A program made the position numbers and the translations under genes. A stretch of 63,960 nucleotides of DNA, counting the filler, from Lenisia limosa (Eukaryota > Protista > Breviatea), in assembly GCA_001655205.1 (NCBI GenBank). It is 15 parts of 15 records of this genome, joined end to end, with 100 filler letters (N's around TTAATTAATTAA, not from the genome) between each part and the next. Parts side by side here need not be neighbours in the genome. Positions count along the whole stretch, not along the records: positions 1 to 8,814 come from LPNZ01010896.1; positions 8,915 to 10,857 come from LPNZ01011050.1; positions 10,958 to 13,213 come from LPNZ01005468.1; positions 13,314 to 15,468 come from LPNZ01008324.1; positions 15,569 to 21,867 come from LPNZ01003001.1; positions 21,968 to 25,416 come from LPNZ01007752.1; positions 25,517 to 39,775 come from LPNZ01011333.1; positions 39,876 to 44,144 come from LPNZ01000794.1; 7 more parts are not named here. One strand, 5' to 3'. The notes beneath the pieces are model-generated. The model made no database searches. It had not been told where the DNA came from and saw only the letters and a program-made list of their open reading frames with translations. Shown here one piece after another: positions 1 through 63,960 of this stretch (the first letter of the stretch is position 1; every line of letters begins with the position of its first letter).

Positions 1-563
1 ACTGGCCCGGGCTTTGTTTTGTTGTTACCAACTCTCGTGTGTTGCCATGGGCTTTTTTTGTTTCATAATTTCTCCAACTCCCCTCCCTGCCAACAGATTT
101 TTTTCTGGGAGTGTTTATTTCTTCATAAATTCCCGATTTCCTCCTCCTCCTTGGTTTTATACATAGTATACAATATATATACATATATGATATCGATATG
201 GTTTTTCTTCCAATTTTACCCCTTCCCCCTGCCGAGTACCTTTACGCCAATATTCATCGAAATTTCCTTCGTTTTATATATTATTCATCGAAATTTCCTT
301 CGTTTTTAGTTATTGTACCAGATAGATTTTATCTAACCTTTGCAGGTACGTTGGAGTGATGGGATGCGGTGCTGCAGAAGCGACTNNNNNNNNNNNNNNN
401 NNNNNNNNNNNNNNNNNNNNNNNNNNNNNNNNNNNNNNNNNNNNNNNNNNNNNNNNNNNNNNNNNNNNNNNNNNNNNNNNNNNNNNNNNNNNNNNNNNNN
501 NNNNNNNNNNNNNNNNNNNNNNNNNNNNNNNNNNNNNNNNNNNNNNNNNNNNNNNNNNNNNNN

Positions 564-3500
564 GGAGACCTTGTCATTTCCGACTACAACAACCACGCTT
601 CTATTGCAACAGGCTGCATGTCTTCCGATGCCAATGTCAAAGTGGGGGTGGTAGTATTCGGTTGAAGGCGTCTGTCAAAGTGGGGGTGAGAGTATTCGGT
701 TGAAGGCGTTTGTCTGTTGATTAACACTTTAGTCATTCACTTCCTATTTTGATTTCTTAGACCTTCAAACATAACGATGCTCTGGACCTTGAGCGAGTGG
801 TATGAGGGAATAATTGGAATTCGGGTACTATGGTCCAAAAAAGTCTGAATTTCTCGAGAAATCCCCGAAACTATCGATATTTTATCTGTCTTTTTCGGAC
901 CGGAGGGAAACCTACTGAGAACGAAGCGTAACGCTTGCATATTTGCTAGGACTCCGACTCCGTCAATTAATTTCTTCCAAAAATTAATTGATACGAGTTC
1001 TGGTTATTATATTACGTATCTCCTATCAATAAAAAATAATTTCATTGGGTCCTGGTAGTTACGTTATTTAGGTTCGTAATGCGATTGTGAGTGGACAGCC
1101 ACGCACGCATCGCCCTTGGACCCGAATTCTGATCATCATTGAAGGCATCTACTCCATGGAGGGTACACGGGGCCTTTCTTTCTTTCTTTGTTTTTTTTTA
1201 TTGTCTTTGAAACTGGGATCATAAACATTCGTCGGTTAACTGTACGATTAGATTGTCTTTTTTTATTGATAGGAATAGCAGCAAGTGTATGCCTATTCAG
1301 GTGTTGGTAATAACAAAAGAACTGTTTGTACACAAGGAGAAATATGCTTTTTTTTTTTTTTTTGCCCTAAATGCTCACGCGAATAGTGACCGGGAAAGTC
1401 TTGACCGATTTTCTTTGGGAAATCACATCGCAAATCGGTCAAGACTTATCCCAGTCACTGTAATATATACTCACTCGAACAGTATGTATTAAATCTACAA
1501 TTTATATGGCGCTTTTACTCACGTAAACAGGAGAAATGTTGAATCTTCCCTAATAATGTGATATTCCCTTATAATACAATGCAAAACAGGAGCAACATGA
1601 TATTCTCTTCTAATACTAATGCAACCAGGAGAAATGTGATTCTCTTCAAATACTAACGCAAAACAGGAGAAATGTGCGACCTTCCCGCTATTTTGGAGGT
1701 CAAGGAGAAGTACGGCTGCTATCTCTTCATTGACGAGGCGCATAGTATCGGCGCTCTTGGTCCCTCCGGTCGCGGAGTCTGTGATTTCTTCCAGGTGGGT
1801 GGGGGGAGATGGTAGAGATACTCCAAGGTAGCTCATTAGCGCAAGAAGACACTACCCCCCCACCACACACACAATCACTCACTCACTGTTCAGAGCACCT
1901 GTCCTTCCAACACCAACACCCCCTCCTCCTTTTTATTTTTATTTTCTTCGTTCATCTTTTTTCTTTGTTCTTTTGAATTAAACAACATCCGACTCACTCC
2001 TCCAGATTGACCCTAAGCGAGTTGACATTCTCATGGGCACTTTCACCAAGTCTTTCGGCTCTGTTGGAGGTTACATCGCGTCCTCTAAGGTCGGCTGGTG
2101 CTACGATGGCTCCGAAAACGACCTGTAAAATATCGATATTTATCCAAGATTTATCGAGAAATTCAGTTTATTTTGGGAACGTGGGAAGTCCCTAATTATG
2201 AAATGCTGGGGTTCCCGTTTTATTTGGCTGTCTCTTCTATTTAGGGCTCCACTTCGGTTCGAAAAAGACTGGTTAAATATCGATAGTTTTTGAGGATTTA
2301 TCGAAAAGTTCAGTCTTTTTTCGAACCGAAGTGAAGCCCTACCTCGATCCCACCAATGCACCTACATCAAGTATTTATTAAAATAAGTATGCTGAGGAGG
2401 CACGCAGAAAACTGTGTGCACAGAGTTGTAAGGCAAATGATTGGGTGAATTAATATTATACTATAATCCAGTATCTCTTATAAGACGGCTTCGGCGAGAT
2501 ACAACCTTCTTTTATTTCTCATTGCTATATATTTACGCAATCGCGAGTCATAGCACATACAGTGACCGGGATAATCGCATCACATGCATATCGATATGTA
2601 TTTAATTTTGTGGACAGCTTCGGCCAGATACAACCTTTTATTTCTCATCTCATATTATTGTCAATGATACGAATTTCTCCCTCACCATTCAGCTCGTAAT
2701 AGACAAAGTTCGCCTTGCCAGCCCCGGCCACCTTTGTTCCGAACCATTGGCCCCTGCCTGTGTTGTTCAGGTTGGTTTGGTCATTAGTTCTTCCTATGGT
2801 CCGAAGGAGACCGTCAAAATATCGATATTTATCGAGAATTTTTGTGAGATTCAGTCTTTTTTGGAAAGCAGTGGTCGCACACTGACCGAATTTCTCCATA
2901 AATCCTCGATAAATATCGACGTTTTTCGGACCGCAGGTAAACCCCTGTCTACCAACGTCTACTTTCCTACTACATTTCTAATTTCAAAGTATCTTCTTGC
3001 TAATAAAGCTGCAGAGTTGTAGCAAAGCAAATGATCCATCCTGATCCCTTAAAAGCGTGATGATGTAGACGGCTTCTGTCAGATACAACCTTTTTTTATT
3101 TCTCATCTCAAAAAGCAATGTCCACTTACCCCGATAGGCCCTGGAAGCTTTCCGAGTTATTACGGGTGCCGACGGTACAACTGATGGTGAGAGGGAGGGG
3201 TATTGACTGGATATTGGCGAGATGAGGGGACAGGGGAGGTATAAGGACGAGGGCGTCCTTATGGTCCCAAAAAACGACTGAATTTCTTGATAAATCCTCG
3301 ATAAATCCTCGATAAATATTTTACTGGTCTTTTCCGGGCCTTAGGGAAGCCCCAATAAGGAGAGGGTGAGTATGAGGCCTTAGGGCTGTGGCGTAGTATT
3401 TTTTTTTTTATTGTTTTTATTTTTTTAAAAAAGGGGGTACGCTGATGGGGGTGAGAGGGTTATGGGTAAGGGGTATTATTATCAGGGCTTCAGTTCGAAA

Positions 3501-4676
3501 AAAGACCTAATTTCTCGATAAATCCTCGAAAACTATCGATATTTTTCTGGCCTTTTTCTTACCGAAGTGAAGCCCTAGGTACTATGACCACTAGGAAGAT
3601 AATTGTTGAGAGGGGAGGGGGAGTAGACGATGGAAAGGGGAGGGTTAAGGGCTTAAGGAGGTGTACAGCAGTTTAGTGCGGTAAATTACCGAGGATTAAC
3701 TCGTCTTTTTTCGACCGAAGTGAAGTACTCTCACATTGCACAGGTGTTCGTCGTATTACAAAGCTGAGAGAAAACAGCAACTACTTCCGTCAGCGTTTAA
3801 TGGACATGGGCTTCCACGTATTCTGTGACAAGGTAGGCTCCTATACTCCTGTTGCCAAACCGTTCATGTGCATGTGATGTTCGCTCACGAGGGATTACCT
3901 TATTGATCGATTGGAACGCTGGAGTGATGAGGAAGTGATCTGTTTGGCTTTATGATCCTAGTTTCAATGAATTTGTTTTGCTAATCCTTCCCCCTATATG
4001 ATGTTCAGTTGTAGTTTTTACCTTGTTGTTGTGAATATTGCATTCCGAGCTAGTCCGAGCCGGTTTCACCAACCAGGACTCCCCGGTTGTTCTCGCTATG
4101 CTCTTCAACCCCTCCAAGGTGGCTGCCTTCTCAAGAATGTGCCTTGAAAGAGGAGTGGGAGTGGACATCTTCTTCCTGTTTAAGAACAAGAATGATCAAC
4201 TTATTAATTTTTTTGAAGCTCAGGCAAATCAAATACTACGCTCCTCGAGCCAATTTTTCAAAAATGTTGCCAGCCAACAGAGTTAATTGTGGTGTTTTTT
4301 TATTTCATAAATTTTCCTATTTCACTCCCCACAGGTTGCTATCGTTGTGGTCGGTTACCCTGCTACCCCGGTTATCCTTTCACGTGTCCGCTTCTGCCTT
4401 TCAAGGTTAGCTGCCATTACATTGAGGATTATGGTTAGGGCTTGCTCCCTAAGTTCCCAAACAAAGACTGAATTTCTCGATAAATCCTCATTAAATATCG
4501 ATATATTGGGAAGCTATAATAGCTACATTTCAATAATCAGAGTGGTAACTTTAGTCACTTCTTTGATTTTGAAAGCTGCTAACTCGCCTAGTTCGCACAC
4601 GCGCGAAGGTCTTGATGAAGCTTTGGCGGTCATTGAAGATGTTGGACGCAAATGCGCCTTGTTTTACTGCAAATAA
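564..4676 (+). CDS. SPTLC2: Serine palmitoyltransferase subunit 2 (LCB2/SPTLC2-like), 5'-partial, at least 11 exons
   Basis: Exons 564-641, 761-799, 1072-1162, 1667-1794, 2006-2089, 2693-2770, 3138-3186, 3744-3832, 4077-4154, 4335-4405, 4592-4676 splice in phase via GT-AG. They give [50 protein letters not shown] (PLP lysine)..[29 protein letters not shown]. Confidence 0.93.
1384..1462. mobile_element. M2 MITE, about 80 bp, TIR (TA)CAGTGACCGGGATAAGTCTTGACC (Tc1/mariner/pogo-like termini)
   Basis: Inverted termini ending CACTG-TA. Copies: 22624-22700, 59035-59110. A related subfamily occurs at 14295-14380, 18698-18780, 41793-41860, 49604-49681, 61935-62012. Confidence 0.85.
2392..2535 (+). 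repeat. E3 non-palindromic intronic repeat
   Basis: GCACAGAGTTGTAAGGCAAATGATTGGGTGAATTAAT..TATAAGCGTGATGG..GACGGCTTCGGCCAGATACAACC..ATTTCTCAT. Copies near 2610, 3010, 8620, 10640, 14400, 19275(-), 23930(-), 25340(-), 30985(-), 40370(-), 41335(-), 42530(-), 47000(-), 47575, 48245, 50690, 59465-59730, 63360. Confidence 0.9.
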
Positions 4677-4735
4677 TGCTTTCTTTTCCTCTCCCTCTCC
4701 CTCTTTTCTGTCTTACATATATGGTGTTTAATTCA

Positions 4736-5782: not shown

Positions 5783-6066
5783 ACCATCTTTATCAAGCAC
5801 TCCATATTTTCGACATTAATGGAATGGATGGGGTTTCTGAGAAATACACCTTGTTTCCGGAACTATTTTGGGGTCATTCACTTCATCATTTAGCCGGTTA
5901 TGATCATAGTTCAGACTCCACCTTCACCATTTAGCCGGTTATGATCATTGTCCTCATTCCTCAACTCACCATCACCGACGGCCAGATGATCATGTCCGTC
6001 TTAGCTTCTGTAGGGGTATCTTGTATTTGAATTGTGAAGAATTCATTCTGGGTTTGGGCCCTTTAA

Positions 6067-6273: not shown

Positions 6274-6499
6274 TTAAGTGACATTCCGCTTCGTTGGTGA
6301 ATACCACAATTTAATTCAGTATCAACAGAGTTGATATTGGGGTTTCTTGTTTCATATCAGATAATACACAATTTTCCAATTCATCCCCCTTCCCCTATTT
6401 TGTTGTTTTTAACCCTTGTGTTTTGTCAGCCAACAGAGTTTATTTTGGGCTTTTTTTTTTGTTTCATAAATTTTCCAATTTTACCCCCCCCCCCCCCAG

Positions 6500-8858: not shown

Positions 8859-8870
8859 TTAATTAATTAA
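8859..8870. other. Artificial contig linker TTAATTAATTAA (stops in all six frames) within N runs
   Basis: Identical 12-mer embedded in Ns at 8859, 10902, 13258, 15513, 21912, 25461, 39820, 44189, 46883, 50778, 52008, 57344, 58949, 62895. Confidence 0.95.
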
Positions 8871-8914: not shown

Positions 8915-9052
8915 ATGTGGTGCTGCAGAAGCGACTGACCTGGGCTTGGTTTGTTTTGTTGTTATCAACCCTTGTGTTGTCAGCCAACAGAGTTAATTTG
9001 GGTTTTTTTTTTTGTTTCATAAATTTTCCAATTTCACCCCCCTCCCCCGCAG
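8915..9052 (+). repeat. E1 intronic repeat (introner-like), ending at a 3' splice site
   Basis: GGTGCTGCAGAAGCGACTGGCCTGGGC..GTTGTCAGCCAACAGAG..GTTTCATAAATTTTCCAATTTTAC(C)nAG. Other copies: 1-100, 347-385, 4265-4334, 6410-6499, 14950-15026, 15178-15330(-), 15569-15668, 17408-17565(-), 20270-20385(-), 23075-23120, 24640-24699, 24775-24840(-), 39745-39775, 40140-40190(-), 51500-51625, 63820-63895. Confidence 0.9.
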
Positions 9053-13384: not shown

Positions 13385-15420
13385 ATGCAGCACATATTCA
13401 GTCACCTAAACGACACCGTGGGAGAACTCCTCACAAAAACGGACCCAGGTGCCCCCCGGGCGCCGTGTTGGTTTTTGGATCCCCATTTCTCGTCTATTGA
13501 GGGTCACGTGATGAGCTGTACCGATTTCAGACCAGGTAGGGGGGGGGGGGNNNNNNNNNNNNNNNNNNNNNNNNNNNNNNNNNNNNNNNNNNNNNNNNNN
13601 NNNNNNNNNNNNNNNNNNNNNNNNNNNNNNNNNNNNNNNNNNNNNNNNNNNNNNNNNNNNNNNNNNNNNNNNNNNNNNNNNNNNNNNNNNNGGGTAATTC
13701 AGAAATTGGCTTGGATGCTGTGAGAAAATTGTTCGAAGACGCCTTCTTTGAAAAGAATTACTTTTTTGTTAATTTCAGTTTGAAAGACTCCAAGCTTTTG
13801 CGTAAATCACGTTCAATATGCACCAATCTTAGAGAAAATAAAACGAAAATCCGAGCCAATTTCTGAATTACGACCCTGCTTTAAGGAGGGGAGGATTAAT
13901 TTTTTTGTTACAGGGCTTACTTTGGTCAAAAACAAGATAAAATAGCATATCATATATTTCATCCAAATATTTGTATTTTCAATGAAAATCACCCAAATTT
14001 ACGAAATTAGCGCATGTCTACGGTCCGTGTGACTCAGCAGTTTGGCGTTGTACCAAGGGGCAGGATGTAATTGTCAAAGTTTGCTGGGTGCTCAACTGGC
14101 AGGCTGGTTGTTTCTTGTTTTTCGACCCTCATTTTTCGCTCTCTCTCTCTTTCTCTTTGTTTTATAATTAGTATATCATATTATACACTATATATATGGA
14201 TATATATCGATATATGATGAATATATATTTTATTTTATTTATTTATTTTTATGCTTCATACCCCACCCTCTACACGAAGTCTTAATTTGTACATTCGTGT
14301 CAGGCCTTATCGCGGATATTGTCAGGACTTATCGCGGATATTGAGCTTTAGCTTGTGTCAGGCCTTATCGCGAGCAGTGTACTTAATAATATTATGCATG
14401 TATGCTTGTATTTTATGATGGTCAGCCTTGGCCAGATACCAGCCTGTTGAATTTCTACATATGATATCATACACGTTTTGGTGTTACCTTGATTTATTCC
14501 TCATCCTACATGTATTTGAAGCAACGTTACTTGTGATTCCATTGCGTTTTATATCGACTTTTTTTTTGAGGATTTGTCGAGAACGTTTATCAAGGATTTA
14601 GCGAATATCCAGGCTTTTTTTGAACCTGAAAGTGTCCTAATTCCCAACCCAGGTGATGTCGCACTACAATGAAGAAACACATCGAACTTTGGCCCAGGCC
14701 GGGATGGCCCCTGTTTTGATGGATCTTGTCACTTTGGAGGATGGGTGGAAGGTCGGTATCCCATGATTCCTGTTTGTTTTATCTTCAATACACTTATTAC
14801 ATATTATATATCATATAGTGTAGTATACCCCAAGATACAATATATTAAAGCAGGCTTTCAAATGGAAACGTTGTTTCGGACGTCCAGGTCAAGTTTTTCT
14901 TTTTTGCGTCGTATTCAACGTGATTCACGCCACTTTTGGCGTGGCCATAATAACAGAGTTGATTTGTGTTTTTTTTTTTGTTCCATAGATTTTCCAATTT
15001 TACTTTCCAATTTAACTCCCCCAGGTAGCCACAATGGAAGCGTTCGAATGTGACCTCGAGAGTTTCCTGTTCCGCACTCCAGGCCGTAAGCCCTCCAAGT
15101 TCTTCAGCCCTCTCATGGACTTCCTGGAGCGTGTCAGGTGTGTTAGGGGCTTCAAAAGAACTGATACTTTTCAGTGACCACGGGGGCGAGTAAAATTGGA
15201 AAATTTATGAAAAATAAAAAAGCCAAAATCCACTCTGTTGGCTGACAACACCCGAGTGTTGATAACTACAAAACAAAGCCCAGGCCAGTCGCTTCGGCAG
15301 CACCGCATCTCATCCATCTGACATTGCTTTAACGATCTTAGGTCCGAACTGAACAACAACCTTATGGTGCATGGTGATATCCACCCCCGTCACGTGGTTA
15401 TGAATGTCACGTTGGAGGGG
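13385..15420 (+). CDS. Atypical protein-kinase-like protein (HGD catalytic loop), partial
   Basis: Exons give ..VMSHYNEETHRTLAQAGMAPVLMDLVTLEDGWK|VATMEAFECDL..FLERVR|SELNNNLMVHGDIHPRHVVM. This resembles the YxxEAHxxLAxxGLAP..GGWxMVVME..HGD kinase-like family. Confidence 0.7.
13692..13884. mobile_element. Kolobok-like element, left end in an N gap
   Basis: GTAATTCAGAAATTGGCT..AGCCAATTTCTGAATTACGACCCTGCT|TTAA. Confidence 0.7.
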
Positions 15421-15668
15421 ATTGAATCAATTACTATATAATTAATATATAATTGAGGGGGGGGGGGGNNNNNNNNNNNNNNNNNNNNNNNNNNNNNNNN
15501 NNNNNNNNNNNNTTAATTAATTAANNNNNNNNNNNNNNNNNNNNNNNNNNNNNNNNNNNNNNNNNNNNTGTTTGTTTTGTTCTCAACCCTCGTGTGTTGT
15601 CAGCCAACAGAGTGGATTTTGGGCTTTTTTTGTTTCAAAAAATTTCCAATTTACCCCCCTCCCCCCAG

Positions 15669-16136: not shown

Positions 16137-19100
16137 TCAGTCCATGAGCGGATCAAAGTCGGCGCTGTGGATGAGTGACCGTAATCAAAAGGGGGGGGGG
16201 GTAAAAATGGAAAATCATGGCGAAACCCCAATGAGTCTGAAGGAAAGCTCAGAAATAACAGAAATCGTGTTCACTGTTTTCTTTGGCACCCGTTGCACGT
16301 GATAGGTTGTTTATGACATAAAATGGATTTGATATGGACTTTGAATGTACTTCAAGGCCCACTGGAAAGTGACGGGGTCCGGCTGGAAGAAGGCCTGTGA
16401 CGGCTCAACCGGCTCCATTGAAGGCACCATGGAGAGACATTCATCGGCTGCGGGCGCCTCTTCGTTCGCTGCAATTGCTTCAGGAAGAGGAAGCTGGATT
16501 TGTGAGATAGCAGAGTAATATCATAACTGCCTTTCAAATCAAGTACGACTGGTGAATGTGTACATTATAATGCCAAGAACTCACCAAGGCGTTTTTGGGC
16601 AAGATTTCGTAACGACAAAGGAGAAAGCGTTTCCTCAAAATCATACGAGCTGCAACGGCCACCTAAAAGAGTGAATACATTTCAGAATATAATAGGAAAA
16701 ATTCTCAAAACATGGGTCATCACTTTGATAGATACAGGCCCCCAACATTGTGAATGAAGATGTAGTTGCATCCTGCTGCTGCAAGACTGCCAAGGAGAGG
16801 CACCACCTGGACGATTAACAGAAGATGCAAAGTGACGACTCTGAATTCTATCACTACGATGCCCCACCTGGAGGATTTTCATGTTGAGCAGTCTCGGGGT
16901 GAGAGTCATAGCGATCGAAGTGATTACATCGTTCTTCTAAAAAGATAATTGTTTTTTGAGCAGTACGTTCCTTCCTTCCCAAGTTTCCATGTATAAGTAT
17001 TGTTCAGCCTGCTTCTTACGTCTTTTGGGGTGCTGTCATTGACTTGCGACTGCATAACGCGCGTAAGGTCTTCTGGGAGGAGGTAAAGATAATTCTATGT
17101 GGTTCACATACCCATCGCCTTGACTCTTTCCTTGCTGTTTGAGCCTAGAGCGCCAAGCAGCAGAATCTGTAGGACAAACTCGATGTCATTATCTGTGTGG
17201 GGATGACATGTGTGTCGGGACATTTTCAAATAAAAAAAGGACTGCTATTGTAGACAGTAAACGACAGATATCCCTCTAATGTAAAAGGTGCCAACCTAGG
17301 TCGGCCTTGACACCACCGTAGTAGTAGGACAAAAGAATGATCATTCTCAGGGCTATCCCGATGAGGACAGGAACATCGGCCAACATAAAGACGACGCCTC
17401 CAAGCCCTGGGGTGGGCGGAGTAAATATGGAACATTGATGAAACAAAACCCCTAGAATCAACTCTGTTGTTTAAGCATTTGTGAAACACAAAAGGGTATA
17501 AAAAATTTCAAGCATAGCCCAGGCCAGTCGCTTCTGCACCACCGGATCCCATCACTCCAGCGTACCTGCAGAGGTGAGATAAAATCTATCTGGGCACAAT
17601 AACCAAAGCAGGTATTTCATCAATTTTGCACTTCAGTGAAAGAAGGGCTATCGTAATGATCTATGGAGCAGAAAAATTAACGGGCAGTATTATAAAAGTG
17701 AAATGCTATTAAAAACGAAGAGTATCGTAGTTGAAAGGTATATGCATGGGGGGGGGGGGGGGGGNNNNNNNNNNNNNNNNNNNNNNNNNNNNNNNNNNNN
17801 NNNNNNNNNNNNNNNNNNNNNNNNNNNNNNNNNNNNNNNNNNNNNNNNNNNNNNNNNNNNNNNNNNNNNNNNNNNNNNNNNNNNNNNNNNNNNNNNNNNN
17901 NTAAAGAGGGAAGGAAAAGAAAGAAGGGGAAGAAGATGAGGAAAACGAAGACGAAGGAGGAAAGGCAGTTTTGAACGGGACTGGCAAAAAGAATTGAGAG
18001 TATACTATGCGGTGTCCACTTGGCACTCGTATGTCTGACCTACCTAGTCCTGAGCCTTCAAGCAGTGCAAGGACCTTGGTGGGCTGAATAACCGACTCAG
18101 ACGCATCATCAAGAAGCTAAACCAGAAAGGATCGGAAATATCTTTTTATACACACTAGTACATAATATATGATTTTATTTTTTTGTATTTAAACTCTAAA
18201 AAACAAGCATATCATCGAGCTATGGTATATAAAGTACATAAATATGAAAAATAGTAGCCATGCTTGGGACTTCAAACGTTCAAATGCCCCAATTTACTGC
18301 AAGGTTAGCGGAGTAAATTGATTCGATGGTCCCTCGCACCGGAATTATACGTTCACTCTAAACAATGATTGATTGTAAGAATACTCAAAGATTGAATCTA
18401 GCCTTCAAAATCCCGCATTTACCCTCCTCCCTTACGGAAAGATCTGTCATGATACTTTCTTGATTAGTGGTGGCGTCAGCAATGCGATACACCTGTCTAC
18501 AACGCTATGAGTTCAAGATTGTATTGAAAAAGAATATTTTTTTACTCTGATAGATAATAATATCATTATATCGATATATATATCATATCATAGTACTATG
18601 CATACAATATGTAGCTGATTTAATACAGTATATGCATATGATATATATAGTATATGATATATATATTATATCATAATATACTACATACTAATATAATACA
18701 CTGACCACGATAAGCTCGACACGGATATTGAGCGTTATTTTTGTTCAATCGTGTCAGGACATTATCGAAGTCACTACTTACTTAGTGTAATACCTTGGGC
18801 TTCACTTCGGTTAAAAAAACGCCAGTAAAATATCGATAGTTTTCGACGATTTATCGAAAAATTCGGTCTTTTTTCGAACCAAAGTGAAGACCTAGTAATG
18901 CCCAGTTCAAACTAGTTTTAATGCCCAAACTGCCAACCTGAGAGCGATTTCCACGGTATCGAGAGCTGTTTTGGTCACCTTTTTTGGCAAGACTGTGACT
19001 GCGGAGTAAGACGTTTTCTTGAGTCTACATCTCAAAGACCCCCTCCTCCCCAGCTTTCAAATCACTACATTACCTTTCCCAAAAATAAAATGTCTCACTT

Positions 19101-21478
19101 ATCAACAATCCTTCAGTTAGAAAAAGTTAAGAACAATATCCCCCCACCGGCAGCAGACGATAGGCCTGCCTTGACTGTTCCCAGCGCCCACCCAATGGGA
19201 GAAAGGGACTCTACTGTGTCAAGAAAAGCCTCAGAATTTTGGTGCATTAGAGAAGACCGTCAGTTAATATTGAATATATAGCAATGAGAAATCAAAAATA
19301 GGGTTGTATCTGGCCGAAGCCGTTCACACCATCAGACTTAAAAGAGACACTGGATTATAGTATACTAATATTAATTCACCCAATCATTTGCCTTACACTC
19401 TGTGCACACAATCCCCGCACCGGAGTCCTTCCCCAGTTCCCATGCAACAACTTCTGAGAACATGGCTGCGTCATAGGTGATAAACGCAGATGGCAGCGTA
19501 CCATAGCCAGCTTCGAGAGCCTAACATAAGGTCAAAGCTGCCTTCCAAAGATCCGAAAACCCTCCCAAAAAATACTAACAACAAGTATACACCAACAAAA
19601 AAAGTCTCAATAACACTCTGATACACTCGGGGTGTATCTCCGTTCATCATTTCAACTTAAAAGTCGGTCATCTGATCACATCACTTGTGGATAGTATATT
19701 CGAGAAACTTGTTTCCATTTCAGCCCCTATCCCTCGAACTTCGGCCAGTTTGAGAGTCAGTTTTTCGGAAGTTGCGGAGAATGAAAGTGCCATCTCATCA
19801 TCTCCGTCAACAGGGTCTTCCTCGTCTCCTTCTGCTATCTTGGGGGTAAGAATGGCCCAAATACAAAGCAATTTGGAAGAGTATAAACCATCCAAGTTCT
19901 GTGATCTGGTAAGGGGTAAAAAAAAACCATTTTAAGACAGTCACAATTACTAACTTAACCTCATCCTCTTCAAGGAACAAAAAATCCATACCTCAAATGT
20001 GATTCCTGCTTGAAAAAATCGGGCTAACATTGTGATTGCGTGATCCACTGCCTCTTCAGTGTCTGACCTGGGGGGGGGGGGAGTAAACGAAGGAAATTNN
20101 NNNNNNNNNNNNNNNNNNNNNNNNNNNNNNNNNNNNNNNNNNNNNNNNNNNNNNNNTTGAAGAATATTGGCGTAAAGGCACTAATGAATAATCTGAGACC
20201 CCAAACAAAAAACAAAAACAAAAAACAAGCAATAACACGCAAAAATGGAACAATTTATGAAGACTTGGCAGTGGGGGAGTATAACGGAAAATGTTACGAA
20301 ATAAAAAACCCCAGAAACAACTCTGTTGGCCGACAACACACAAGGGCTGAAACAACAAACACACAAAGCCCAGGCCAGTCGCTTCACCAAAGCAGGTATA
20401 TACTTCATTCACCTTTGTATCGTAATGATCTACGGAACAGCTAAATTAACCGACAGGGGTAATAAATATTTGAAATATTAGAACAATAAGATTTAAATGC
20501 TACAAAAAACATATCATTGGTAAGAAGTGTGAAAATGGAGCACGATGAAAAGAGACCCGTGATGTTGCATAATGTGGCTGAGGGGAGATGGTGCAAAATT
20601 GAGAAGCAAAATGAAGATGATGAAAAAAGAAGCCCAGTACAACCAAAATAACACACCCATGTTTTTTTGAAAGATAGTTGTTGGAGATGAAACGGCTGCA
20701 AATGAGTTTCCAGTCATTTTCAAGACCTTGTTCTGTTCGACTTCGGCTCAACTACACACCGTTACCCCTTTAATTCAACTCACACCAATATCCTCAGTAA
20801 GAGAGTGCGCAAAAAAAAAACCTGCTTTTTATCAGCCCTCATACCTCGAAATACGGTGGAATATTTGTAACAATGCGGTAGGGATAGTTTTGAAGCAGCC
20901 AATCATGATAGAACTCCTAAACAGATAATTGAAAGTCCAATAGGCAGGGAAATAGGAATCCCCTTCTATCATATAGATTTTTGATTGTAATAAGCATCCA
21001 GTTGCCACCACCTGAACAGTCTCCTCACCTTGCCATACAAGCGAAACATGAGTCTAGCTTTGACAAGTGGTGGAGTTTGGCGGCATATCCTGGACGGGTA
21101 AGTATCATAAAGTGCTTTATGATATAATGTAAATGATATATATANNNNNNNNNNNNNNNNNNNNNNNNNNNNNNNNNNNNNNNNNNNNNNNNNNNNNNNN
21201 NNNNNNNNNNNGATACATTAGAGGGGCATTTGCCTTGTACTTTTCCACTGCCGACCCCCTACCTAAAATACGGGTTTGAAGGAAACGTTCCTTTCAGTTT
21301 CTTAGCACTGAGCTCCTTGGCTTGGCCTGGCCATATCTTCTGTGGATCAACCAGCATTGTGAAATCTATTGGGAGAAAATGAGAAAGTTATGATGAAAAA
21401 CGTCACACCTCAGTTTTCAACCCAGGGATCTTCGGGCTCTTGAGCCCTCACGAGAGTGACTTCAACTGCAGTATTGAG
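16137..21478 (-). CDS. EcsC-family domain protein with N-terminal extension, many exons, 5'-partial
   Basis: Minus-strand exons from 19005 to 16137 splice to ..VLALLEGSGLGLGGVVFMLADVPVLIGIALRMIILLSYYYGG..IEFVLQILLLG..SIAMTLTPRLLNMKILQVVPLLGSLAAAGCNYIFIHNVAVAARMILRKRFLL..DFDPLMD*, which matches the EcsC pattern. Assignment of exons above 19.1 kb to the same gene is less certain. Confidence 0.75.
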
Positions 21479-22059
21479 TATTGCAATTAAGATGACAAGG
21501 TATGAGCAAGAGTGCAGCAAATACAATAAAAAGTATGATGTATGCTATGTCTCACAGGGTTTTTAAAAAATACAATGATAAACTAGCTGCTAATGAAGAC
21601 CCTCACTTATAACTTGATTCAAAAACCAAGAAAACAGCCAGCCGACTAACAAACAACTCAAAAGACCCAAAGTTGATCAATGCTATGTGATAATGGAGGT
21701 ATGCATCTTACTCTTAAGTTATATAATATACATATGATATATGATATGTATGCAATACATTAGATTTCAGATTTCAGAGATTCCGATTTCCACTTACCTG
21801 AGACTAATGATAGATGAGGTGCGCTCAATCGGGTTAATTATCAGCTCTGTGATTATTATTATTAAATNNNNNNNNNNNNNNNNNNNNNNNNNNNNNNNNN
21901 NNNNNNNNNNNTTAATTAATTAANNNNNNNNNNNNNNNNNNNNNNNNNNNNNNNNNNNNNNNNNNNNCAGCAATTAAACAAACAAAGCCCAGGCCAGTCC
22001 ATATCCAGCGTACGTGAAATTCAACTACCCTTTCTCCCATAAAAAGAACAATACCCTAC

Positions 22060-25000
22060 CATGGGCACGTTATCGTAGGAGGAGGCCACGGGGAAGAGGC
22101 GGAGAGTGCATTGCCTCCAGACCCTGAACGGAGTAAGAGTCTGCATACTAGGAGGAGTAAAACGGGGGAATTTGTGAATAAGGTACCAAGAAAGACGGAA
22201 TTTCTCCATGGTCTGTAAAATTACAAAAAAGATGGAATTAATTTCTCGACATGTTTGGTAAAATTTCACTCAGAGACTTCGTCCACTTCAACAAAAACAA
22301 AACAAAACAAAAAAATAACTCACTTGTGCTTCTTGGCAAGATGGGCAAGAGAAAGCACCAAAAACATTAAAAACAAAACAAACAAAAAAACAGCAAACAG
22401 CAAAACAAAAACAAACCATAACCCACTTGTGCTTCTTGAGAAGATGCGGCAAGAGAAGCATCAGGCCGCCCTCCTGCACCACCCAGTAAATGTCGATTGT
22501 GCCAAATTGCAGGTCTCCGTAGCGCGGGAAATTCTCAACCTGGGGATAAAACGAAGGAAATTTCGATCAAGAATATTGGCGTAATGGGGGTAAAATAGAA
22601 CAATTTATGAAACATATTATACAATGACAGGGATAAGTCTTGACCGTTTTGCAATGTATTTCCTAAGGCAAATCGGTCAAGACTTATCCCGGTCACTGTA
22701 TATCAATATAATACCCCCATTCCCCCAGGGGGGATTCGGTGCTGATGTAGAGAATTCTACACAAAGAGTGGACTTTTGTTAAGTCTTTTGTTATTCACAA
22801 TTAAAGAGATATAAGACCATACCCCCTAACTCCTTGAACGATCAAAGCAGCCTTGTCCACGGTATTGACCTTCGAAATGGTACTGAAGAACGCTTCACCC
22901 TGTGATGTTAAGGGCAGTGCGGGTTTACAATATTTGTACATATGTATAAATATATAATTATGTGTATACTACATATAATACACTAATTATGTCATATATA
23001 CAATATGGGCATGATTTGTAATATGGGTGTTAAATTGCAATATGGGTGTGGTTGAGTGCTTCAAAATAATTGATTTGGGCTTTTTTGTTTCATAAATTTT
23101 CCAATCCCCCCCCCTCTCACAGTTTCCCCTACCTTCTAAGTCATATGATTGGGGCTTTCCTACGATCCGAAAAAGACCTTTCAAATATAGATATTTATCG
23201 AGGATTTATTGAGAAATTCGGTCATTTTTAGGACCGTAGGGAAGCCCTAGATATATTACATGTAGCACAACCCCCCACCTTTTTGATATCCTCATGCCAG
23301 TCACTTGGGAGGGCCATGACAACCGTATTGGGCTGAAGCATGCCCACTCCAGCGCTTTGTACCAGTGTGGCCACAGAGGCGTCAACGTCCCTGCATTAGT
23401 TACATTTATTTATATTAGTTACTAAGTTACCATTAGTTGTGTATTAGTTCTGTTCGTTGTATTAATTGGTGTATTAGCTGCATTAGTTGTATTTTACCAC
23501 CTCACGGTACAACAATAGTCTCGTGGAAGCCGTACATATGCGCCTCTGTCATTTCATCCACAAGCGCCTTGTCTACTACGGGTCGAACTGCACTGCGTTC
23601 ACTCAGAGAGCCCTGAGTGAGGGGTGTAAAAGGCGTGTTGAGAGTTGGTCAGGGGCTGGGTATGGGTGGTAGTATTAAGTTTTTTGCAGTAAAGTCTCTA
23701 TTGAAACTGATCATAGAGATCCAGCGGTTGGAAGGTATTATCAGTGACTGCGTAGTACGGTTGTAAGTAGGGCTTCCCTACGGTCCTAAAAAGACGATAA
23801 ATTCCGTCTTTTTTGGGACCACAGGTAAGCCCTATTGTAAGGATGTGTGGGGATGAATAAGGCACGGATTATCACCCCTGGTAGAACCGTAGCGTGATTC
23901 CTAAATAATGCCACCAACCCTCAATAATATTAAGCAACGAGAAATTAAAAATATGTTAGTATCTGGCCGAAACCGTCCACCTGTGCACACAGCTTTCTGT
24001 ATGCCTCCCCAATAGTAAGTAATCATAAACAATCAAGCTAGATCCCATCACCATAACAATAATGCCCCCCAACCTCAATCACAGCCATAGCCATACAGAG
24101 CCCCTTTGATGCCTTGAGCTGGGCGGCAAAATGGATCAAATTCGAATCGGCTAACTCGCGCCTGTTTGTCACATTGCTAAGTTGTTAAGAGGTGAAAAAG
24201 TTGCTAAGCTGTTAAGAAAGCAAGCAAAGCTATTGCCACGTAGTTAAGAAGAGAAATAAAAATAGTTGCTAAGTTGTTAAGAAAGCAAAGCAGTTTCAAA
24301 ATTTTGCTAAATCGTTTTGATTTCTTACCTCTCCCCTCCAACCACATAGCTAGTAACTGAGGCCTCCAGTTTTTGGTATGCGTGTCATGGCATTCGGCTG
24401 TTTCGAGAGCAAGCAGATTGTCTGTGAAGTTATTTGGGAATGCTGAAGTTGAATTTCAAAACAGTGTTGGATAATTTTGGGTAAACAAATATAATTAGGC
24501 GTTTTCAGTGTTAAAATTACATCTTCCCTCTGGTCCGAAAAAGATCCTGAAAATATCGATATTTATCGAGGATTTATCGACAAATTAAGTTATTTTGGGA
24601 CTAGTTAAATAGATATCACGAAGACAACACACCACCCCACAGGCCTTTTATTATTGTTTTAGAAAATTTTCCAATTTTACTCCCCCCCTCCCCCCGCACC
24701 CTTAGCCCGTTGGTAGCGGAAGCCTCTGAGGGAGTCGCCCCAATCCGCAGCCACGCCCTTCAACTCAATGTACTAGGGGGGGAGGTGTAAAGGAATTTAT
24801 GAACAAAAAAAAAGAGCCCAAATCAGCATTGTTGGCTGGGGGAGGCGGGAGTGAAACGAAGGAAATTTGATGAGGTATAAGGTCACGAACCAAATTCAAG
24901 AAAATTCCAAACAAAAAACAAGCAATAACAAACACAAGCAACCAACGCTAAAACTTGACAAAAGCCAGATGACAAAATCACAAAAACAGGTAGGGGGGGG

Positions 25001-39623: not shown

Positions 39624-39979
39624 GTGGGTGGGGATAGCAACACATGGTACCAACAGAGAAAATACCAACCATCGTTATCAACTACAACCCTGTGGTTCTC
39701 AATTACTTTGCCAGATTTTATGTTCATAAATTGTCAATTTTCACTCAACCTAGAGTTGATTTTGGGCTTTTTTTCNNNNNNNNNNNNNNNNNNNNNNNNN
39801 NNNNNNNNNNNNNNNNNNNTTAATTAATTAANNNNNNNNNNNNNNNNNNNNNNNNNNNNNNNNNNNNNNNNNNNNAAATTAGACTTACGCTGTGTGTGAT
39901 TATGAGAAGGGCAGTGTGTTTTCAAAAGACAATTGGGGGGAGAGTAGTTTATGGGGAGTATTGCTTGACTAACCTGAAC

Positions 39980-42900: not shown

Positions 42901-43847
42901 GTGGCATGAGATCTACCCAGGATTGTAAGAACAACACTAATCGTAATGCCACGATAACACTGCATGGTAAGGCATGGTAATGTGTTTATAGTGTCCCTGA
43001 TCTTTATTTATTTGTTTCCCTAGATTTCTAATGTATGTATAGTATACTATTTCTCTTTTTCAAAAAAAGATAACTAATCACTTCCAACTACTTCCACTTA
43101 TTTCCCACATACAAAATTCAAAACACCTGCTCCGATAACTCTCTTCTCCGAGTCTTGAAGTTTCTCTTTGCTTCCTGGCAAATGAATAGTCAATTTTTGA
43201 AAGGATTACAAAAATAAAGGTCTCTTTTCCTAATACACAACAAAAATACTTCTCTCTCCTGCATCCAGCACCCACCAAAAAGCACTTTTCTCAATGGGTA
43301 GCAAACGCGCACTCGACACCCAGGCCGTGTACCTGTCGCTATCGTTGTGACATGTTTCTGGGGGGAGGGTAAACGAAGGAAATTTTGATGCCGAAAATTG
43401 GCGTAAAGATACTAATCACGAATGGAAAAAACTTTTCCAGAAAATTAACTGTATTTTTCCAGGAAAACTACTGAAAAAGTGAAAATATCCTGACTCAAGT
43501 GTTTTCCAATCGAATTCACCCTCGTTTTTTGCTCGTGGTTGTCTTCCTTTTGTTACTCGGAGTTTTCTGTTGAGGAAAACTCTCGTTCGCTTCGCAAACA
43601 CGTGTTTTCCGGCCAGAAAACTCCCAGGAAAAAAATAAAAATGAACCACTCCCAGGAAAAAAAAAAACTCGGGGTTTTCTTAGAGGAAAAAATCTGAAAC
43701 TCAAAAAAACAAAATGGGGGGCGAGAAATTCAGTCTTTTTGGGACCGAAGAGAAGCCCCAACAATGAAAAAGAGGAGGCCCCAGCAACCACGTCAATATC
43801 GGCCCCTCTCAAAGCCGCTACTGCTCCTGATGAGGTCACCAGAACGT
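39980..43847 (-). CDS. NSUN6: RNA m5C methyltransferase NSUN6-like (PUA + RsmB), partial
   Basis: Exons give AALRGADI..QNLPSIAVGVALD..ILDMCAAPGG|KTTHVAGL..VVAVDRVKAKV..FDRILLDPPCSALG|VRPR..YQKRFLRVAADLLKKGG. Confidence 0.9.
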
Positions 43848-51087: not shown

Positions 51088-51950
51088 GCAGTTCCGCGTG
51101 GAATCCTCGGGAAGCGACACTATTAGCCGGCATTCAAGCTTTGATTCGAAGCACTTCAACAATTTTTGCGATTCCAAGATGTTTCCTTCGGCCAGCGTGG
51201 GGTGGTGGGATCAGAATAACATACTATATTATATAGATGTGGTTGGTGGTTTGTTATAGTATATCATATTATATTTAATAGTATCTTGTTTATACAATGT
51301 ATATTGTATTATTTTATTTTACAAAGTACCATTCATCCTCGCCTGGTGGCCCCCATTATTCTCCATTGAAATTTTCTTCGTTTTACCTCTCCAGAATCCT
51401 GCACCTCTCCTTCCGAGTCTGAGTGAACAAAGTCTGCCTGACTTCATATCGGGTGAGGGAATGGGTTGTGTTCATTGCACCCCCGTCCCTTATCAGATAC
51501 GGTGCTGCAGAAGGAACTGACCTGTGCTTTGTTTGTTTTGTTGTTATCAACCCTCGTTTGTTGTCAGCAACAGAATTAATTTTGGGCTTTTTTTTTCATA
51601 AATTTTCCAATTTTACTCCCACCGACTCTTCAAAGGCTGGCTCGGGCTTTTTTTTGTTTTTGTGTTTTTGTCATCTGTCTCTGTCTAGTTTTAGCGTTGG
51701 TTTCGTTTGTTATTGCCTGGTTTTGTTTTTTGTTTGTTTGGAGTTTCAGATTATTCGTTTCGTAATTTGTACCTTTTCGCCCAATATTCTTCATCGAAAT
51801 TTCCTTCGTTTTACCCTCCAGCCAATCAATTAATTCATCAGACTTGCCCGAAATCGGCAGTCGCGCGCCCTGGGCCCTCGCGTCTGGGTGGACGTGGTTG
51901 TCTGTCGCACTTAGTCGCTCCAGTGTTCTCAGGGGGACTCTCGTACATAA
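51088..51950 (+). CDS. Unknown gene fragment (three probable exons)
   Basis: GC-richer segments bounded by AG and GT(G-run). Reading frame not resolved. Confidence 0.25.
51660..51830 (+). repeat. E5 intronic repeat (TG-rich body with a conserved 3' end)
   Basis: ..TTTACGCCAATATTCTTCATCGAAATTTCCTTCGTTTTAC(C)nAG. Other copies: 236-308, 20069-20250(-), 22550-22585(-), 24840-24985(-), 43355-43415(-), 62951-63016. Confidence 0.9.
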
Positions 51951-58857: not shown

Positions 58858-60481
58858 GTGGGGGCCTTTCGGTGTATTTTTTTATATAGGTGACCATACA
58901 TAACNNNNNNNNNNNNNNNNNNNNNNNNNNNNNNNNNNNNNNNNNNNNTTAATTAATTAANNNNNNNNNNNNNNNNNNNNNNNNNNNNNNNNNNNNNNNN
59001 NNNNTCAGGGGGGGGATTGGATGATAAAGTATCACAAGAACAAGTTAAGTCTTGACCGATTTGCTCTGTGGATTTCCCAAGGAAAATAGGTCAAGACTCC
59101 GGTTACTGTACAAAATAACGTATCATCATCATATGATATAGAATTCAATGTTATAAAGCTCAATTTACTTCTTTGTAGCGATTGTGGACTTTGAATCGGA
59201 AGAGGACTCGCAGTAGCTCCACTGCCTCCTTCATCACCATTGCCATCCTCCATCATCATCAACACCATCATAGCCATCTACTCTCCAACATTCCTTCAAG
59301 GAAAGGAAGGCCTGTCATTTTTTTTATTTGTTCATATTTGTGGCTTTAGTTCTTTTGTTGTTTCAGTTGTATTTCTTTTTGTTCAGGGTGTATTTAAATG
59401 TATTACTATGAGATTGAAATTTTGGTCTCGAGAAGACCCGGTGTAAAAAAATATGGTTGAGCAACTTTGCATCTGACCGAAGCCGTCTACACCATCACGC
59501 TTATGAAAAAATATTGGATTATATCATCTGGCAAAGCCGTCCAAACCATCACGCTGATAGAGATATTGGTTATATTATCTGGCCGAAGCCGTCTATAATA
59601 CGCATGAAATGTGTATATATGTGGTTATTTATCTTTCAATGTCACTTTGTACGAATGTCGGAAATTAAAGTTATTTTACTCTATCTCTTATAAGCGTGAT
59701 GAGGGCGACTTCGGCCAGATACAACCTTATTTATGATTAAGAATATTCCAAAAATAGCCCAAAACCCGCACAATGATGATGCAAAAAGTATTTGGTTATA
59801 TTCAGAAGAAATAATATATCATTCATCAAGATACTATTTCGAAAATTCGAATATTTAACATGTTACAGCTCGAGCTTAATAAGCATCATTCAATTGAGCA
59901 TCCGTCATATGACACTCAATTCTCCTATTTTCAGCCAAAAAATTCCTTGTTATTTGTTTATTACAAGTTTATTATCCTGTTTTATACTTGCTCAGAAGAG
60001 ATGATTCAGTGTGCCCTAAGATAGTGGTGAAACGGAAACAGGGGAAAAGTGAGATCTGAAGGGCTTGCACGTATACTGTCGTTTAGGCATTACTTGTTTT
60101 AGTGTCTGATTTCATATTAATTTAGCCAGGAAAGGAACATGAAGGAGGCTCCCAAAAATAGCCCAAAAACCAAGATTTTCTAAATTCGTAGTTTCCATGA
60201 AATGAACTGAACCGTGTCACCTAGTTTCTTTTTTGAAGAATCATTTTGATTTTGAAGACCCTTTTCTGAACTGTGAGTGGCTTGTTTAACGTGGAAATTT
60301 CGTGTGTGCTCTTTTTGTGTTGATTTATTAACCCATTCTTTTTCATTACTCACCTCCATCCATATTCTTCTTTGGAATCCCCTTCACCTCAATAGAATAA
60401 GGTAAGAGAGAGTTTGCTTGAGCTGTTGTAATTAAAATGACAAATTCTGTGAAATGAGCTCGCCTCTGTTTACATTTATAG

Positions 60482-61017: not shown

Positions 61018-62064
61018 ATGCACTTTCTTTGCCACCACAGTTTGGTACATTTACAGGGCTTAGTGTTGGATACACTTTAGAAAATCATCCTGACCATCCC
61101 ATTCTTGTATTTCACATTTCCAGTCATTAAAACATCATATTCATGGTTATATATCGAATGAGAGGGTATTTGGTAATTGTATTCTTTGCGCAGGCTCTCG
61201 CTTCCCCTTCCCCCTTTCCCTTATTTGCCCTTTTCTTCTCAAGTGCCCCCGCAGTTTTATGAGTCTATTTGAAACCAGTTTTCTTGGAAAACTTCTTCTT
61301 GATCACAGAATCAATCCATATATTTAGAAAACAAATAACTGCAGATACAACAAGAGAAAAGTGTTCTCATAGGGTTCAATTATAACAGGGTGGGTTCCGT
61401 GGCTGTGTAAATTCACGAGAGAACGGTTGATCAATGCGAGGAGGGATCTACCATTTTCATTTCCTTTACGTCTCTGTGCACACAAGCCACAGCTTTCAGG
61501 TAACCTGACAGAAAACTGAAATTCGTGCAATTTTTGAAAGAAATTTCATTCGGACTATGAAACTCCTTGAATGATGTCAATCTAAACCATATTTGGAGTG
61601 GGGTCAATGCTTCGTGGGAAGGCGTAGTATTCTTAATTTAATATATGTATTATACATCGTATTCGGTTTGGTCACTTGGGTATAGGCTTATAAACTTGTT
61701 TGCATTTATTTTTATAGCTGAAAGAGGTGTTGTAGATTTGTTTTGTAATGTTTATATTTATCAATAGTAGAAAATTTGTGAAATCGATTTCAAAAGTTGA
61801 AAGTGTATTTTAGACACATCGTATTTTCCAATGGATCATTATGACAAGTTGGGATTTCCATGATATTATTATTGAATTCTTAGGATATGTATGGGATTCT
61901 CAAATACCATATGGGAATCCCAAGTCGATGTAATCTGACCACGACAAGTCCTGACGCGGATATTGAGCTTAATTTTCAGTCGGTCGTGTCGGGACTTATC
62001 GCGATCAGTGTATATTGGAAACCCCATATGCGTTTACTGCAACAACAACATGCATCTCATCGCA

Positions 62065-62830: not shown

Positions 62831-63016
62831 CGAGCTTCTTTCACCAGAGGNNNNNNNNNNNNNNNNNNNNNNNNNNNNNNNNNNNNNNNNNNNNTTAATT
62901 AATTAANNNNNNNNNNNNNNNNNNNNNNNNNNNNNNNNNNNNNNNNNNNNTGATTAGTACCTTTCCGCCAATATTCTTCATCAATATTTCCTTCATTTTA
63001 CTCCCCCCTCCCCCAG

Positions 63017-63497
63017 GCTCCATTGATGGTGACTCATCTGGCGACTATGTTATTCACGCCGAGGACGGTGATGACCTTATTGTCACTGGTAGCTTCGACC
63101 ACTAGTGGGGGGAAATTGATTGGGTGAATTAGTGTGAGATATTATCCATTCATTATCTCTTATGCCAACTTTGAGCACAAGTCAATATGTAAGACTATAA
63201 TTCAATATCTGCTATGGAAACTTCCAGCACTAGTGGGATATTGAAAAACTGTTTTTTTTTTTGCTTGATTGTTTCTAAATGATACGTTTTTCTTGGAGAT
63301 GAAATAAAATATTGAAACAAGCTAGCCTCTTTTTACTGTACCCCCCTCCACTAAGTAAAATGTTTGGGTGAATTAGTATTAGACTATACTTCAATATTCC
63401 TTATAAGCGTGATGGCGTGGACGCAGATACCACCTGCTGTTTTCTTTAACGTTTCAGCGACAAGGAGGGTGACACTGGTCGTCTTATGATTATCACT
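63017..63497 (+). CDS. Unknown gene, internal exons
   Basis: GSIDGDSSGDYVIHAEDGDDLIVTGSFDHY|DKEGDTGRLMIIT, in phase across a GT-AG intron. Confidence 0.35.
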
Positions 63498-63960
63498 GTA
63501 TGGCGGTGTTTGCCAATTGAAAAAAGAACATCTGTTTCATACATAATATATACATTTCCAATTTTATGCACCTTTACGCCACTATTCTTCGTCGATCCGT
63601 TTTACTCCCACCAGTATAATCATCAGTACTGATTATATGTGTGAATCTTCTATTTTACTCCTTTATAGAAGGAGGGTCAGTTCGTTCGCAGCATTGGCAA
63701 CTACGCTAGCCACTATTCTATTCCCACGAAGGTAACAGGGATATTGAAAGGCGGTGTAATCGCAATGTTTTATTTTGTATTTATTGTGAAGTTCATTTGT
63801 TTTCATCCCCTTAACTGGTTGTGTTTTGTTTGTGTTGTAGTTATCAACCCGTGTATTGTAAGCCAACAGAGCTGATACCCCCCTCCCCCCCAAAAGATTG
63901 ATATTTTGTTTATGGTACCCGGATGTAGTATTTGTTTCCCTAGATTTCTAATCCCCCCCC

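Follow-up and report, generated by a model that had tools for sequence, protein, structure and literature searches.

Repeat families E1 and E5 in the window

The window, a stretch of 63,960 nucleotides from the intron-rich protist Lenisia limosa, consists of 15 contigs separated by N44-linker-N44 spacers. It comprises genes for SPT, a cyclase-like protein, fumarate reductase, a kinase, EcsC, KCC, an IFT81-like protein and NSUN6. The introns of the window are full of MITEs.

Two families of repeats, E1 and E5, are dispersed in multiple copies across these unrelated genes (Table 1). A profile search with nhmmer gave 10 matches for module E1a, 18 for E1b, 3 for E5a and 11 for E5b, the latter representing 10 copies of which one is split by a gap, while the reversed window, used as control, gave no E1 or E5 match. 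In total, 22 independent units were identified. The similarity covers 50-160 nt, the lowest E-values reaching 1e-21, and the 3′ modules have a median pairwise identity of 73-75%. The module orders E1+E5, E5+E1 and E1+E1 described before are all present.

Table 1. Units of the repeat families E1 and E5 in the window.
Positions	Strand	Feature	Remark
1..385	+	SPT intron 1: stack of E1a-E1b, E1b, two E5b, E0 and E1 start (CAG|GTACG at 346) into gap	exon resumes at 564; acceptor within gap
4269..4334	+	E1b, acceptor of SPT intron 4155-4334	phase 0, behind residue 393
6323..6499	+	tandem pair of E1b reaching the acceptor of intron 6010-6499, cyclase-like gene	open frame only; exon partly in gap
8915..9052	+	E1a-E1b between contig start and acceptor of fumarate reductase	donor not visible
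14952..15024	+	E1b, its tail duplicated, at kinase acceptor	
15182..15317	-	antisense E1 within kinase intron 15138-15341	no terminal AG
15569..15668	+	E1, contig start to predicted acceptor	donor not visible
17407..17565	-	complete E1 (GTACG to CCCCAG, 159 nt) after inner CAG, EcsC intron 18043-17407	E0 upstream to ~17690; PF12787 match starts at exon start
20068..20460	-	stack at EcsC acceptor: E0 part, E1a-E1b, E5a-E5b	
21968..22013	-	E1 start (CAC|GTACG), ~45 nt after KCC donor 22059	contig ends inside
22540..22614	-	E1b tail and E5b at acceptor of KCC intron 22830-22540	PF03522
23064..23115	+	antisense E1b within KCC intron 23278-22900	
24654..24699	+	antisense E1b tail; reverse complement is G-rich donor of KCC intron 24699-24422	
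24773..24987	-	E5a-E5b-E1b stack at acceptor of KCC intron 25170-24773	homologs
39746..39775	+	E1b start in IFT81-like intron	cut by contig end
40122..40185	-	E1b fused behind 5′ part of famA	ends 24 nt before NSUN6 acceptor 40098
43358..43410	-	E5b at NSUN6 acceptor	
51351..51394	+	E5b at predicted acceptor	
51453..51841	+	composite intron made of a 44-nt GT..CAG unit, an E1 whose donor is dead (ATACG at 51497) and E5a-E5b to 51821	
62951..63016	+	E5b, contig start to predicted acceptor	donor not visible
63570..63614	+	E5b with CAG end	54 nt before modelled acceptor
63829..63960	+	degenerate E1, 97 nt after donor	cut by window end

E1 is shaped like an intron of ~160 nt, starting with GTACG and ending with a run of C followed by CAG, as in the copy 17565-17407. 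For E5, a donor-like start was looked for and none was seen. Among the copies of both families the 3′ ends are fixed and the 5′ ends variable. In the consensus from the DNA run, the sequence behind the C-run of E1 reads AG first and then diverges. In contigs of the same run, E1 ends, one E5 end and one MITE are joined straight to the E1 start (joints 6499 to 352, 6484 to 352, 276 to 352 and 4488 to 346), so GTACG is a sharp boundary that recurs behind different upstream modules. It may also be internal to a larger unit. At position 351 the summed read depth is 34,163 versus ~30 for single-copy DNA; this depth is not a copy number, and it suggests E1 copies of the order of 10^3.

Several known classes of elements were considered. 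A SINE or a retroposon derived from snRNA or tRNA was rejected, as Rfam gave no match on E1 or E5 within positions 1-18500 at E-values up to 1 and the tail is C-rich and not A-rich; the flanks show neither a poly(A) tail nor an excess of flanking repeats. An introner derived from a TIR DNA transposon of the MITE type was likewise rejected. Own versus cross TIR scores gave p = 0.25, and target site duplications, proposed earlier as a check, left no signal, the junction repeats averaging 2.4 versus 2.1 nt. Folding z-scores are 0.1 to 1.0, compared with -10.6 for a true MITE. A TIR-introner model derived from the G-rich donors and C-rich acceptors failed for lack of an own-pair excess, with a rho of 0.05 between G-runs and C-runs. 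An exact 24-nt E1 motif had no match in metagenome and viral contigs.

Placement at acceptors and orientation

The analysis was based on 67 complete modelled introns, for which two rows with wrong boundaries were removed from the original listing, four corrected and two added. Open frames alone support 28 of the 67. The SPT acceptor is supported by a transcript-derived protein and the acceptors of KCC and EcsC (17407) by homology; most others have an open frame only, and there the choice of the acceptor is partly circular. RNA evidence spans positions 1-8814, where the cyclase-like gene has too little coverage to judge. Splicing of SPT intron 4155-4334 is indicated by the length arithmetic of the RNA contig and by the agreement of the model with residues 156-444 of the transcript-derived protein P0001.

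Fifteen units have a visible 3′ end, and 12 of them stop exactly at the modelled acceptor AG, versus none of 23 control repeats (MITE 0/16, famA 0/7). In complete modelled introns, 7 of 17 E1b and E5b matches end at most 10 nt from the acceptor, versus 4% expected (p = 4e-6). The preliminary description had stated that the repeats end exactly there, and this was confirmed. Its acceptors 4334, 6499, 9052, 15668, 43358 and 63016 are exact; five others shift (15026 to 15024, 17408 to 17407, 20069 to 20068, 22550 to 22540 and 24776 to 24773), and 51394, absent from that description, completes the 12. Near the acceptor given as 51830, the E5 AG lies at 51821 and the modelled acceptor at 51841, 20 nt further on; both give open frames.

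The sense orientation described before holds for 19 of the 22 units (p = 9e-4), the exceptions being the antisense units 15182-15317, 23064-23115 and 24654-24699. The last of these matches donor 24699 with 17.8 bits, a score for which none of 1340 shuffles reaches even 6, in a frame checked against homologs. The control repeat famA is also in sense in 7 of 7 cases within complete introns, so selection or transcription can bias the strand.

Only 10 of the 67 introns carry E1 or E5 at or near the acceptor, leaving 57 without. Among 56 other introns, 7 likewise have a C-rich tail; GGGG is found in 20 of the 67 donors and CCCC in 14 of the 67 acceptors.

5′ ends and inner CAG|GT junctions

For 14 of the sense units the donor is visible, and none of these starts within 20 nt of it, although a model of insertion at CAG targets expects about one third of the units at donors (P = 0.003); the donors of the units at 8915, 15569 and 62951, which begin at contig starts, lie outside the visible sequence. 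None of the 67 donors begins with GTACG, and the GT of E1 is in no case the modelled donor. The donor-like E1 start reported earlier at 347 and 17565 was found, at 346 and 17565, and in both cases lies inside an intron. The intron part upstream of E1 or E5 is unrelated sequence. Ten E1/E5 introns were compared within a set of 66 introns (one with a donor off by 3 nt), and their first 60 nt show background similarity, with none of 45 pairs scoring at least 30; since the ten were picked by 3′ similarity, only this 5′ result is a test.

The surviving sense E1 starts read CAG|GTACG at 346 and 17565, CAG|ATACG at 51497 and CAC|GTACG at 22013, so that an inner CAG precedes three of the four. At three of the four starts, the inner AG is preceded by a motif resembling a branch point and by a pyrimidine tract, versus 9% of 123 inner CAGs. 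As the junctions at 346 and 17565 have a common upstream module, E0 (82 aligned columns), they represent one event, and the independent cases are therefore two CAG and one CAC.

Because 6 of the 30 contig ends lie within E1 or E5, young introns made of a whole E1 are under-sampled, and assembly breaks may hide them.

Age of the intron positions

A comparison of intron positions with orthologues had been proposed earlier as a check. In plant LCB2, introns presumably lie at the sites corresponding to P0001 155|156, 295|296, 338 and 393|394, and in human SPTLC2 presumably at the first three of these. The plant exon lengths, which we take to be 127 and 167 nt, agree with the spacing computed on a gapless alignment. 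On these boundaries, both E1-bearing SPT introns appear to be at positions common to plants, an outcome that the preliminary description had named as refuting its introner reading. The 80 loci obtained through the SPT alignment are all intronless. The KCC intron that follows residue 217 and carries E5 has no matching break among 87 homolog fragments, so some intron gains may have taken place. Word searches with one KCC exon and one EcsC exon gave no matches.

Origin of the acceptor modules

The preliminary description had offered two readings, in which much of the intron complement was built either by a family of introners or by a mobile cassette carrying a 3′ splice site. The first is not supported in view of the absent donors, the unrelated 5′ ends and the small share of introns concerned; the second fits the data. 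We give an even chance to the reading that E1 and E5 are repeats carrying a 3′ splice site, likely introner-like mobile elements, inserted at the YAG|exon junction of pre-existing introns. With E1 inserted at an acceptor, two introns would lie end-to-end as a twin (old intron AG|GT E1 AG|exon), which could be spliced in either order, so that the insertion would be near neutral. Decay or deletion of the inner AG or GT would then leave one longer intron with the acceptor of the element, repeated insertions would give stacks, and composites such as E0+E1 would move as units. The bias in strand and site would most probably stem from a hypothetical link to splicing, namely reverse splicing into nascent RNA or displaced single-stranded DNA.

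The wider proposal, that a mobile family targets and takes over existing 3′ splice sites, so that ancient introns throughout the genome exchange their acceptors via transient zero-exon twin introns, with composites becoming mobile units, is put forward tentatively, at somewhat below an even chance. Against takeover of acceptors stand the three antisense copies, one of them a donor, which misfit strict reverse splicing, the single event behind 346 and 17565, E5 without a donor-like start, the under-sampling of young E1, the KCC E5 intron without a matching break, the SPT positions being old by presumption, the gap at the acceptor of SPT intron 1 and the 28 introns modelled on open frames.

Alternatively, E1 and E5 may be classical introners that inserted into exons and created introns, after which deletion, insertion of MITEs and ectopic recombination between families removed or exchanged their 5′ halves. 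E1 appears to carry both splice sites and has roughly 10^3 copies, young copies break the assembly, NSUN6 intron 40239-40098 consists almost entirely of famA and E1b, and the KCC E5 intron has no matching break. This is nevertheless unlikely, considering that the elements own none of the 14 visible donors, that similarity is at background level in the 5′ ends and is kept in the 3′ modules, and that the SPT cases are presumably at ancestral positions.

Fixed 3′ and variable 5′ ends could also result from 3′-anchored, 5′-truncated copying primed at C/G runs, either through microhomology-templated repair or through target-primed reverse transcription, in which case the tail, being C-rich, would anneal to C-rich acceptors in sense and to G-rich donors in antisense. 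The frequency of GGGG donors and CCCC acceptors and the antisense E1b tail ending exactly at donor 24699, to which 46465 adds a weaker example, agree with this. We regard it as improbable, since a sharp GTACG boundary after different modules is unexpected from random truncation, only one of the 67 donors scores at least 8 bits, and poly(A) tails and a flanking-repeat excess are lacking.

That ordinary transposons insert anywhere and selection keeps the sense copies restoring an acceptor seems very unlikely: famA is sense-biased as well and the introns are MITE-rich, but random insertion predicts far more mid-intron than terminal copies, the opposite of what is observed, and the controls never end at acceptors. 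Convergence of splice signals and artefacts of the assembly, to which C-rich tails in other introns and the fragmented contigs might point, are refuted by long alignments absent from the reversed control, by copies on separate contigs and by single-copy DNA contigs spanning the SPT copy.

Comparison with known systems

Introners are defined by similarity at both splice boundaries, and the screen of Gozashti et al. filters out secondary insertions into existing introns (PMC9860276, PMC12130899). As E1/E5 introns are alike at one boundary only (0/14 donors), they would be excluded. These sources also describe introners that carry one splice site and obtain the other from target duplication (PMC9860276, PMC12130899); E1 and E5 resemble them as repeat families supplying splice sites, and the CAG|GT...CAG layout of E1 recalls the one-site type.

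The IE-A elements of Micromonas pusilla are similar as high-copy sense repeats with donor, branch point and acceptor, and include nested, merged and remnant copies (PMC3879977). However, they are mostly whole introns at new positions with remnants lacking both splice sites, whereas partial copies of E1 and E5 form the majority, retain an acceptor that works and are stacked 3′. The Hypoxylaceae sister stwintrons are composites of two introns and spread as one unit, and in cropped sister introns the deletion of inner splice sites fuses two units (PMC8469720, PMC12403724, PMC7138796). They lie nested within the donor, carry terminal inverted repeats and occur in tens of copies at new positions, unlike the E1/E5 units, which lie end-to-end at the acceptor, without symmetry, and are far more numerous. 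An identity with stwintrons was rejected, as E1 units abut (CAG|GT) and no inner intron interrupts an outer splice signal. Within the open literature searched, precedents for nested or merged introners were found and no case of acceptor takeover or intron replacement.

If the proposal is true, introner-like elements can not only create introns but also rewrite old ones, shared intron ends are no proof of intron gain, and families of this kind would escape introner screens that require both ends. If acceptor junctions are the target, this would implicate the spliceosome or the unspliced transcript as insertion site, and a genome with about a thousand copies would allow the long-debated route of reverse splicing to be tested. 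The inner CAG|GTACG junctions of E1 may be analogous to recursive splice sites (AG|GT zero-length exons), having the same form; to our knowledge, these occur in very long animal introns and not as parts of repeat families. The CAG|GT junctions would thus be natural, short candidate substrates of recursive splicing.

Gene Models and Repeat Families

The window comprises 15 short contigs (1.0–14.3 kb each) of an intron-rich eukaryote, separated by N44-linker-N44 spacers, and contains additional N gaps which often adjoin G or C runs. In total, 67 complete introns were modelled, with support from the transcript for 10, from homology for 29 (Pfam or BLAST for KCC, NSUN6, and EcsC, recognition of the protein by the analyst for the remainder) and from an open frame alone for 28. 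The reads that match the sequence belong to a single study, with one DNA-like and one RNA run. The translated 11-exon model of the SPT gene equals residues 156-444 of the transcript-derived protein P0001 exactly.

Self-comparison of the window yielded several hairpin MITEs and three directional families, E1, E5 and famA. E1 consists of E1a, beginning with GTACG, and the approximately 70 nt long E1b, whose end is a C run plus AG. E5 is composed of the T-rich E5a and of E5b (~55 nt), whose tail is similar to that of E1b. A profile search returned 10 matches for E1a, 18 for E1b, 3 for E5a and 11 for E5b, and none in the reversed window used as control. The median pairwise identity of module copies is 73–79%. 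In the DNA run, contig depth adds up to 34,163 at the E1 start vs. ~30 for single-copy DNA; this sum is not itself a copy number but suggests E1 copies of the order of a thousand. Neither a TIR or TSD signal nor a folding signal nor an Rfam match was found for E1/E5.

E1/E5 at the Acceptors of Unrelated Genes

After merging of stacked modules, 22 units remained, 19 of them in sense orientation to the host gene (p = 9e-4); the sense orientation stated in the preliminary description thus applies to these and not to the other three. The described ending of E1/E5 at acceptors of unrelated genes was confirmed: the 3′ end lies exactly at the acceptor in 12 of the 15 units with a visible end and 20–54 nt short of it in three, while among the control repeats no MITE (0/16) and no famA copy (0/7) ended within 10 nt of an acceptor. 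The E1-derived AG of the SPT intron 4155-4334 is used, since the 149 nt spacing between two listed pieces of an RNA contig equals the flanking exons 4077-4154 and 4335-4405 together. Joining the KCC exons across the introns that end in E5 and E5+E1b yields a collinear alignment to full-length homologs.

The 5′ side is different. In none of the 14 sense units with a visible donor does an E module stand at the donor, the first one following 39–478 nt downstream, and the 5′-terminal 60 nt of ten E1/E5 introns resemble each other at background level. Under a simple model of E1 insertion at any CAG, about one third of insertions would be expected in exons (P = 0.003 for the observed 0/14). Furthermore, 57 of the 67 introns have an acceptor free of E1/E5, and lengths of just 39–119 nt are seen for the ten introns in RPL32 and in the fucose-isomerase-like gene. 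These observations contradict the plain introner reading, in which such elements made these introns. E1/E5 are like introners in build, but the published definition requires similarity at both ends, which E1/E5 introns do not show (PMC9860276, PMC12130899). No description of acceptor takeover was found in the open-access main texts of the introner literature searched.

Four sense E1 copies have a preserved start (Table), and three of them follow an acceptor-like context, vs. 9% of inner CAGs. The copies at 346 and 17565 share an upstream segment, E0; this composite therefore spread as one unit between genes on separate contigs, and the pair is counted as a single case. A 44 nt GT..CAG unit containing a pyrimidine tract stands directly ahead of the copy at 51497 and gives the appearance of a small intron lengthened by E1. 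In contigs elsewhere in the genome, the E1 start is joined directly to E1 ends, an E5 end and a MITE.

Table. Positions of E1 starts, other repeats and further features in the window.
Feature	Position	Remark
E1 start, sense	346	CAG|GTACG
E1 start, sense	17565	CAG|GTACG
E1 start, sense	51497	CAG|ATACG
E1 start, sense	22013	CAC|GTACG
GT..CAG unit	51453-51496	44 nt
famA	2387-2533, 10639-10753, 19275-19420, 30964-31088 and others	~150 nt, 25 matches
Hairpin MITE	2244-2341, 7503-7600, 18797-18894, 23152-23249 and others	98 nt, fold z -10.6
Small MITE, first family	1385-1468, 22614-22702, 59046-59110	
Small MITE, second family	14335-14379, 49601-49684, 61935-62010	
Coding-like tandem copies	32700-33350, 34000-34500	diverged
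Nine-exon gene	57400-58857	introns short and repeat-free

Age of the Introns

None of the SPT orthologue loci retrieved for comparison carried introns. We take plant LCB2 to have introns at the equivalents of P0001 155|156, 295|296, 338 (phase 1) and 393|394, and human SPTLC2 presumably has the first three in common with it. On P0001, which aligns with Arabidopsis LCB2a without gaps, the computed spacings are the same as the plant exon lengths, assumed to be 127 and 167 nt. The acceptor of the first E1-bearing SPT intron lies inside a gap ending exactly at codon 156. If these plant and human boundaries are correct, the two SPT introns that carry E1 are both old.

KCC points the other way. Of 87 short KCC homolog fragments, given without taxa, none breaks after residue 217, where the E5-bearing intron lies, by the analyst's reading, and 42 break after the HK motif, 1 nt from an intron of the window gene. 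This intron (22426-22124, minus strand) lies one base upstream of the break. Within it, the exon end is present a second time together with another donor, and a tail weakly resembling E1b has its AG in frame with the modelled acceptor, 24 nt ahead of it; intron sliding is possible.

Proposed Mechanism

The best fit is a series of steps in which an intron-shaped element would insert at a YAG|exon junction, the resulting abutting twin introns would be spliceable in either order, and the inner AG|GT would then be lost neutrally. Insertion at YAG|exon with loss of the inner site would explain the fixed 3′ ends, the unrelated 5′ parts, the stacks and the sense bias. The merging of twin introns through an internal deletion has a precedent in Hypoxylon (PMC8469720). 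Copying of E1 by C/G-run priming is kept as a rival; the donor at 24699, formed by an antisense E1b tail, fits this route better. Classical intron gain may also run in parallel to insertion at acceptors, since 6 of 30 contig ends lie inside E1/E5 and whole-E1 introns may thus be hidden.

Other Repeats and Further Features

FamA, an intronic repeat, starts with GTATGCTGG, similar to GTACGYTGG of E1, and shares the motif ACAGAGTT with it. It is in sense in 7/7 complete introns and never terminal, forms the donor end of the EcsC intron 19420-19211 and follows an acceptor-like TAG in one RNA contig. It is possibly a related, older element. For the 98 nt hairpin MITE, the depth summed at 7565 is very high (228,105), and 16 copies lie within modelled introns, including at least seven in SPT. 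Both small MITE families have inverted ends of the CAGTG type, and TA flanks some of the copies, as in Tc1/mariner derivatives.

The nine-exon gene resembles, in our estimation, a fucose/arabinose isomerase, which we take to be unusual in a eukaryote; the one exon searched gave no Pfam match. An unknown coding-like sequence occurs in two tandem copies. Among all donors, position +5 is G in 56/67 and +3 is unusually free. GGGG occurs within 14 nt of 20 of the 67 donors (e.g., 12822, 24699, 46465), and several assembly gaps start at such G runs near donors.
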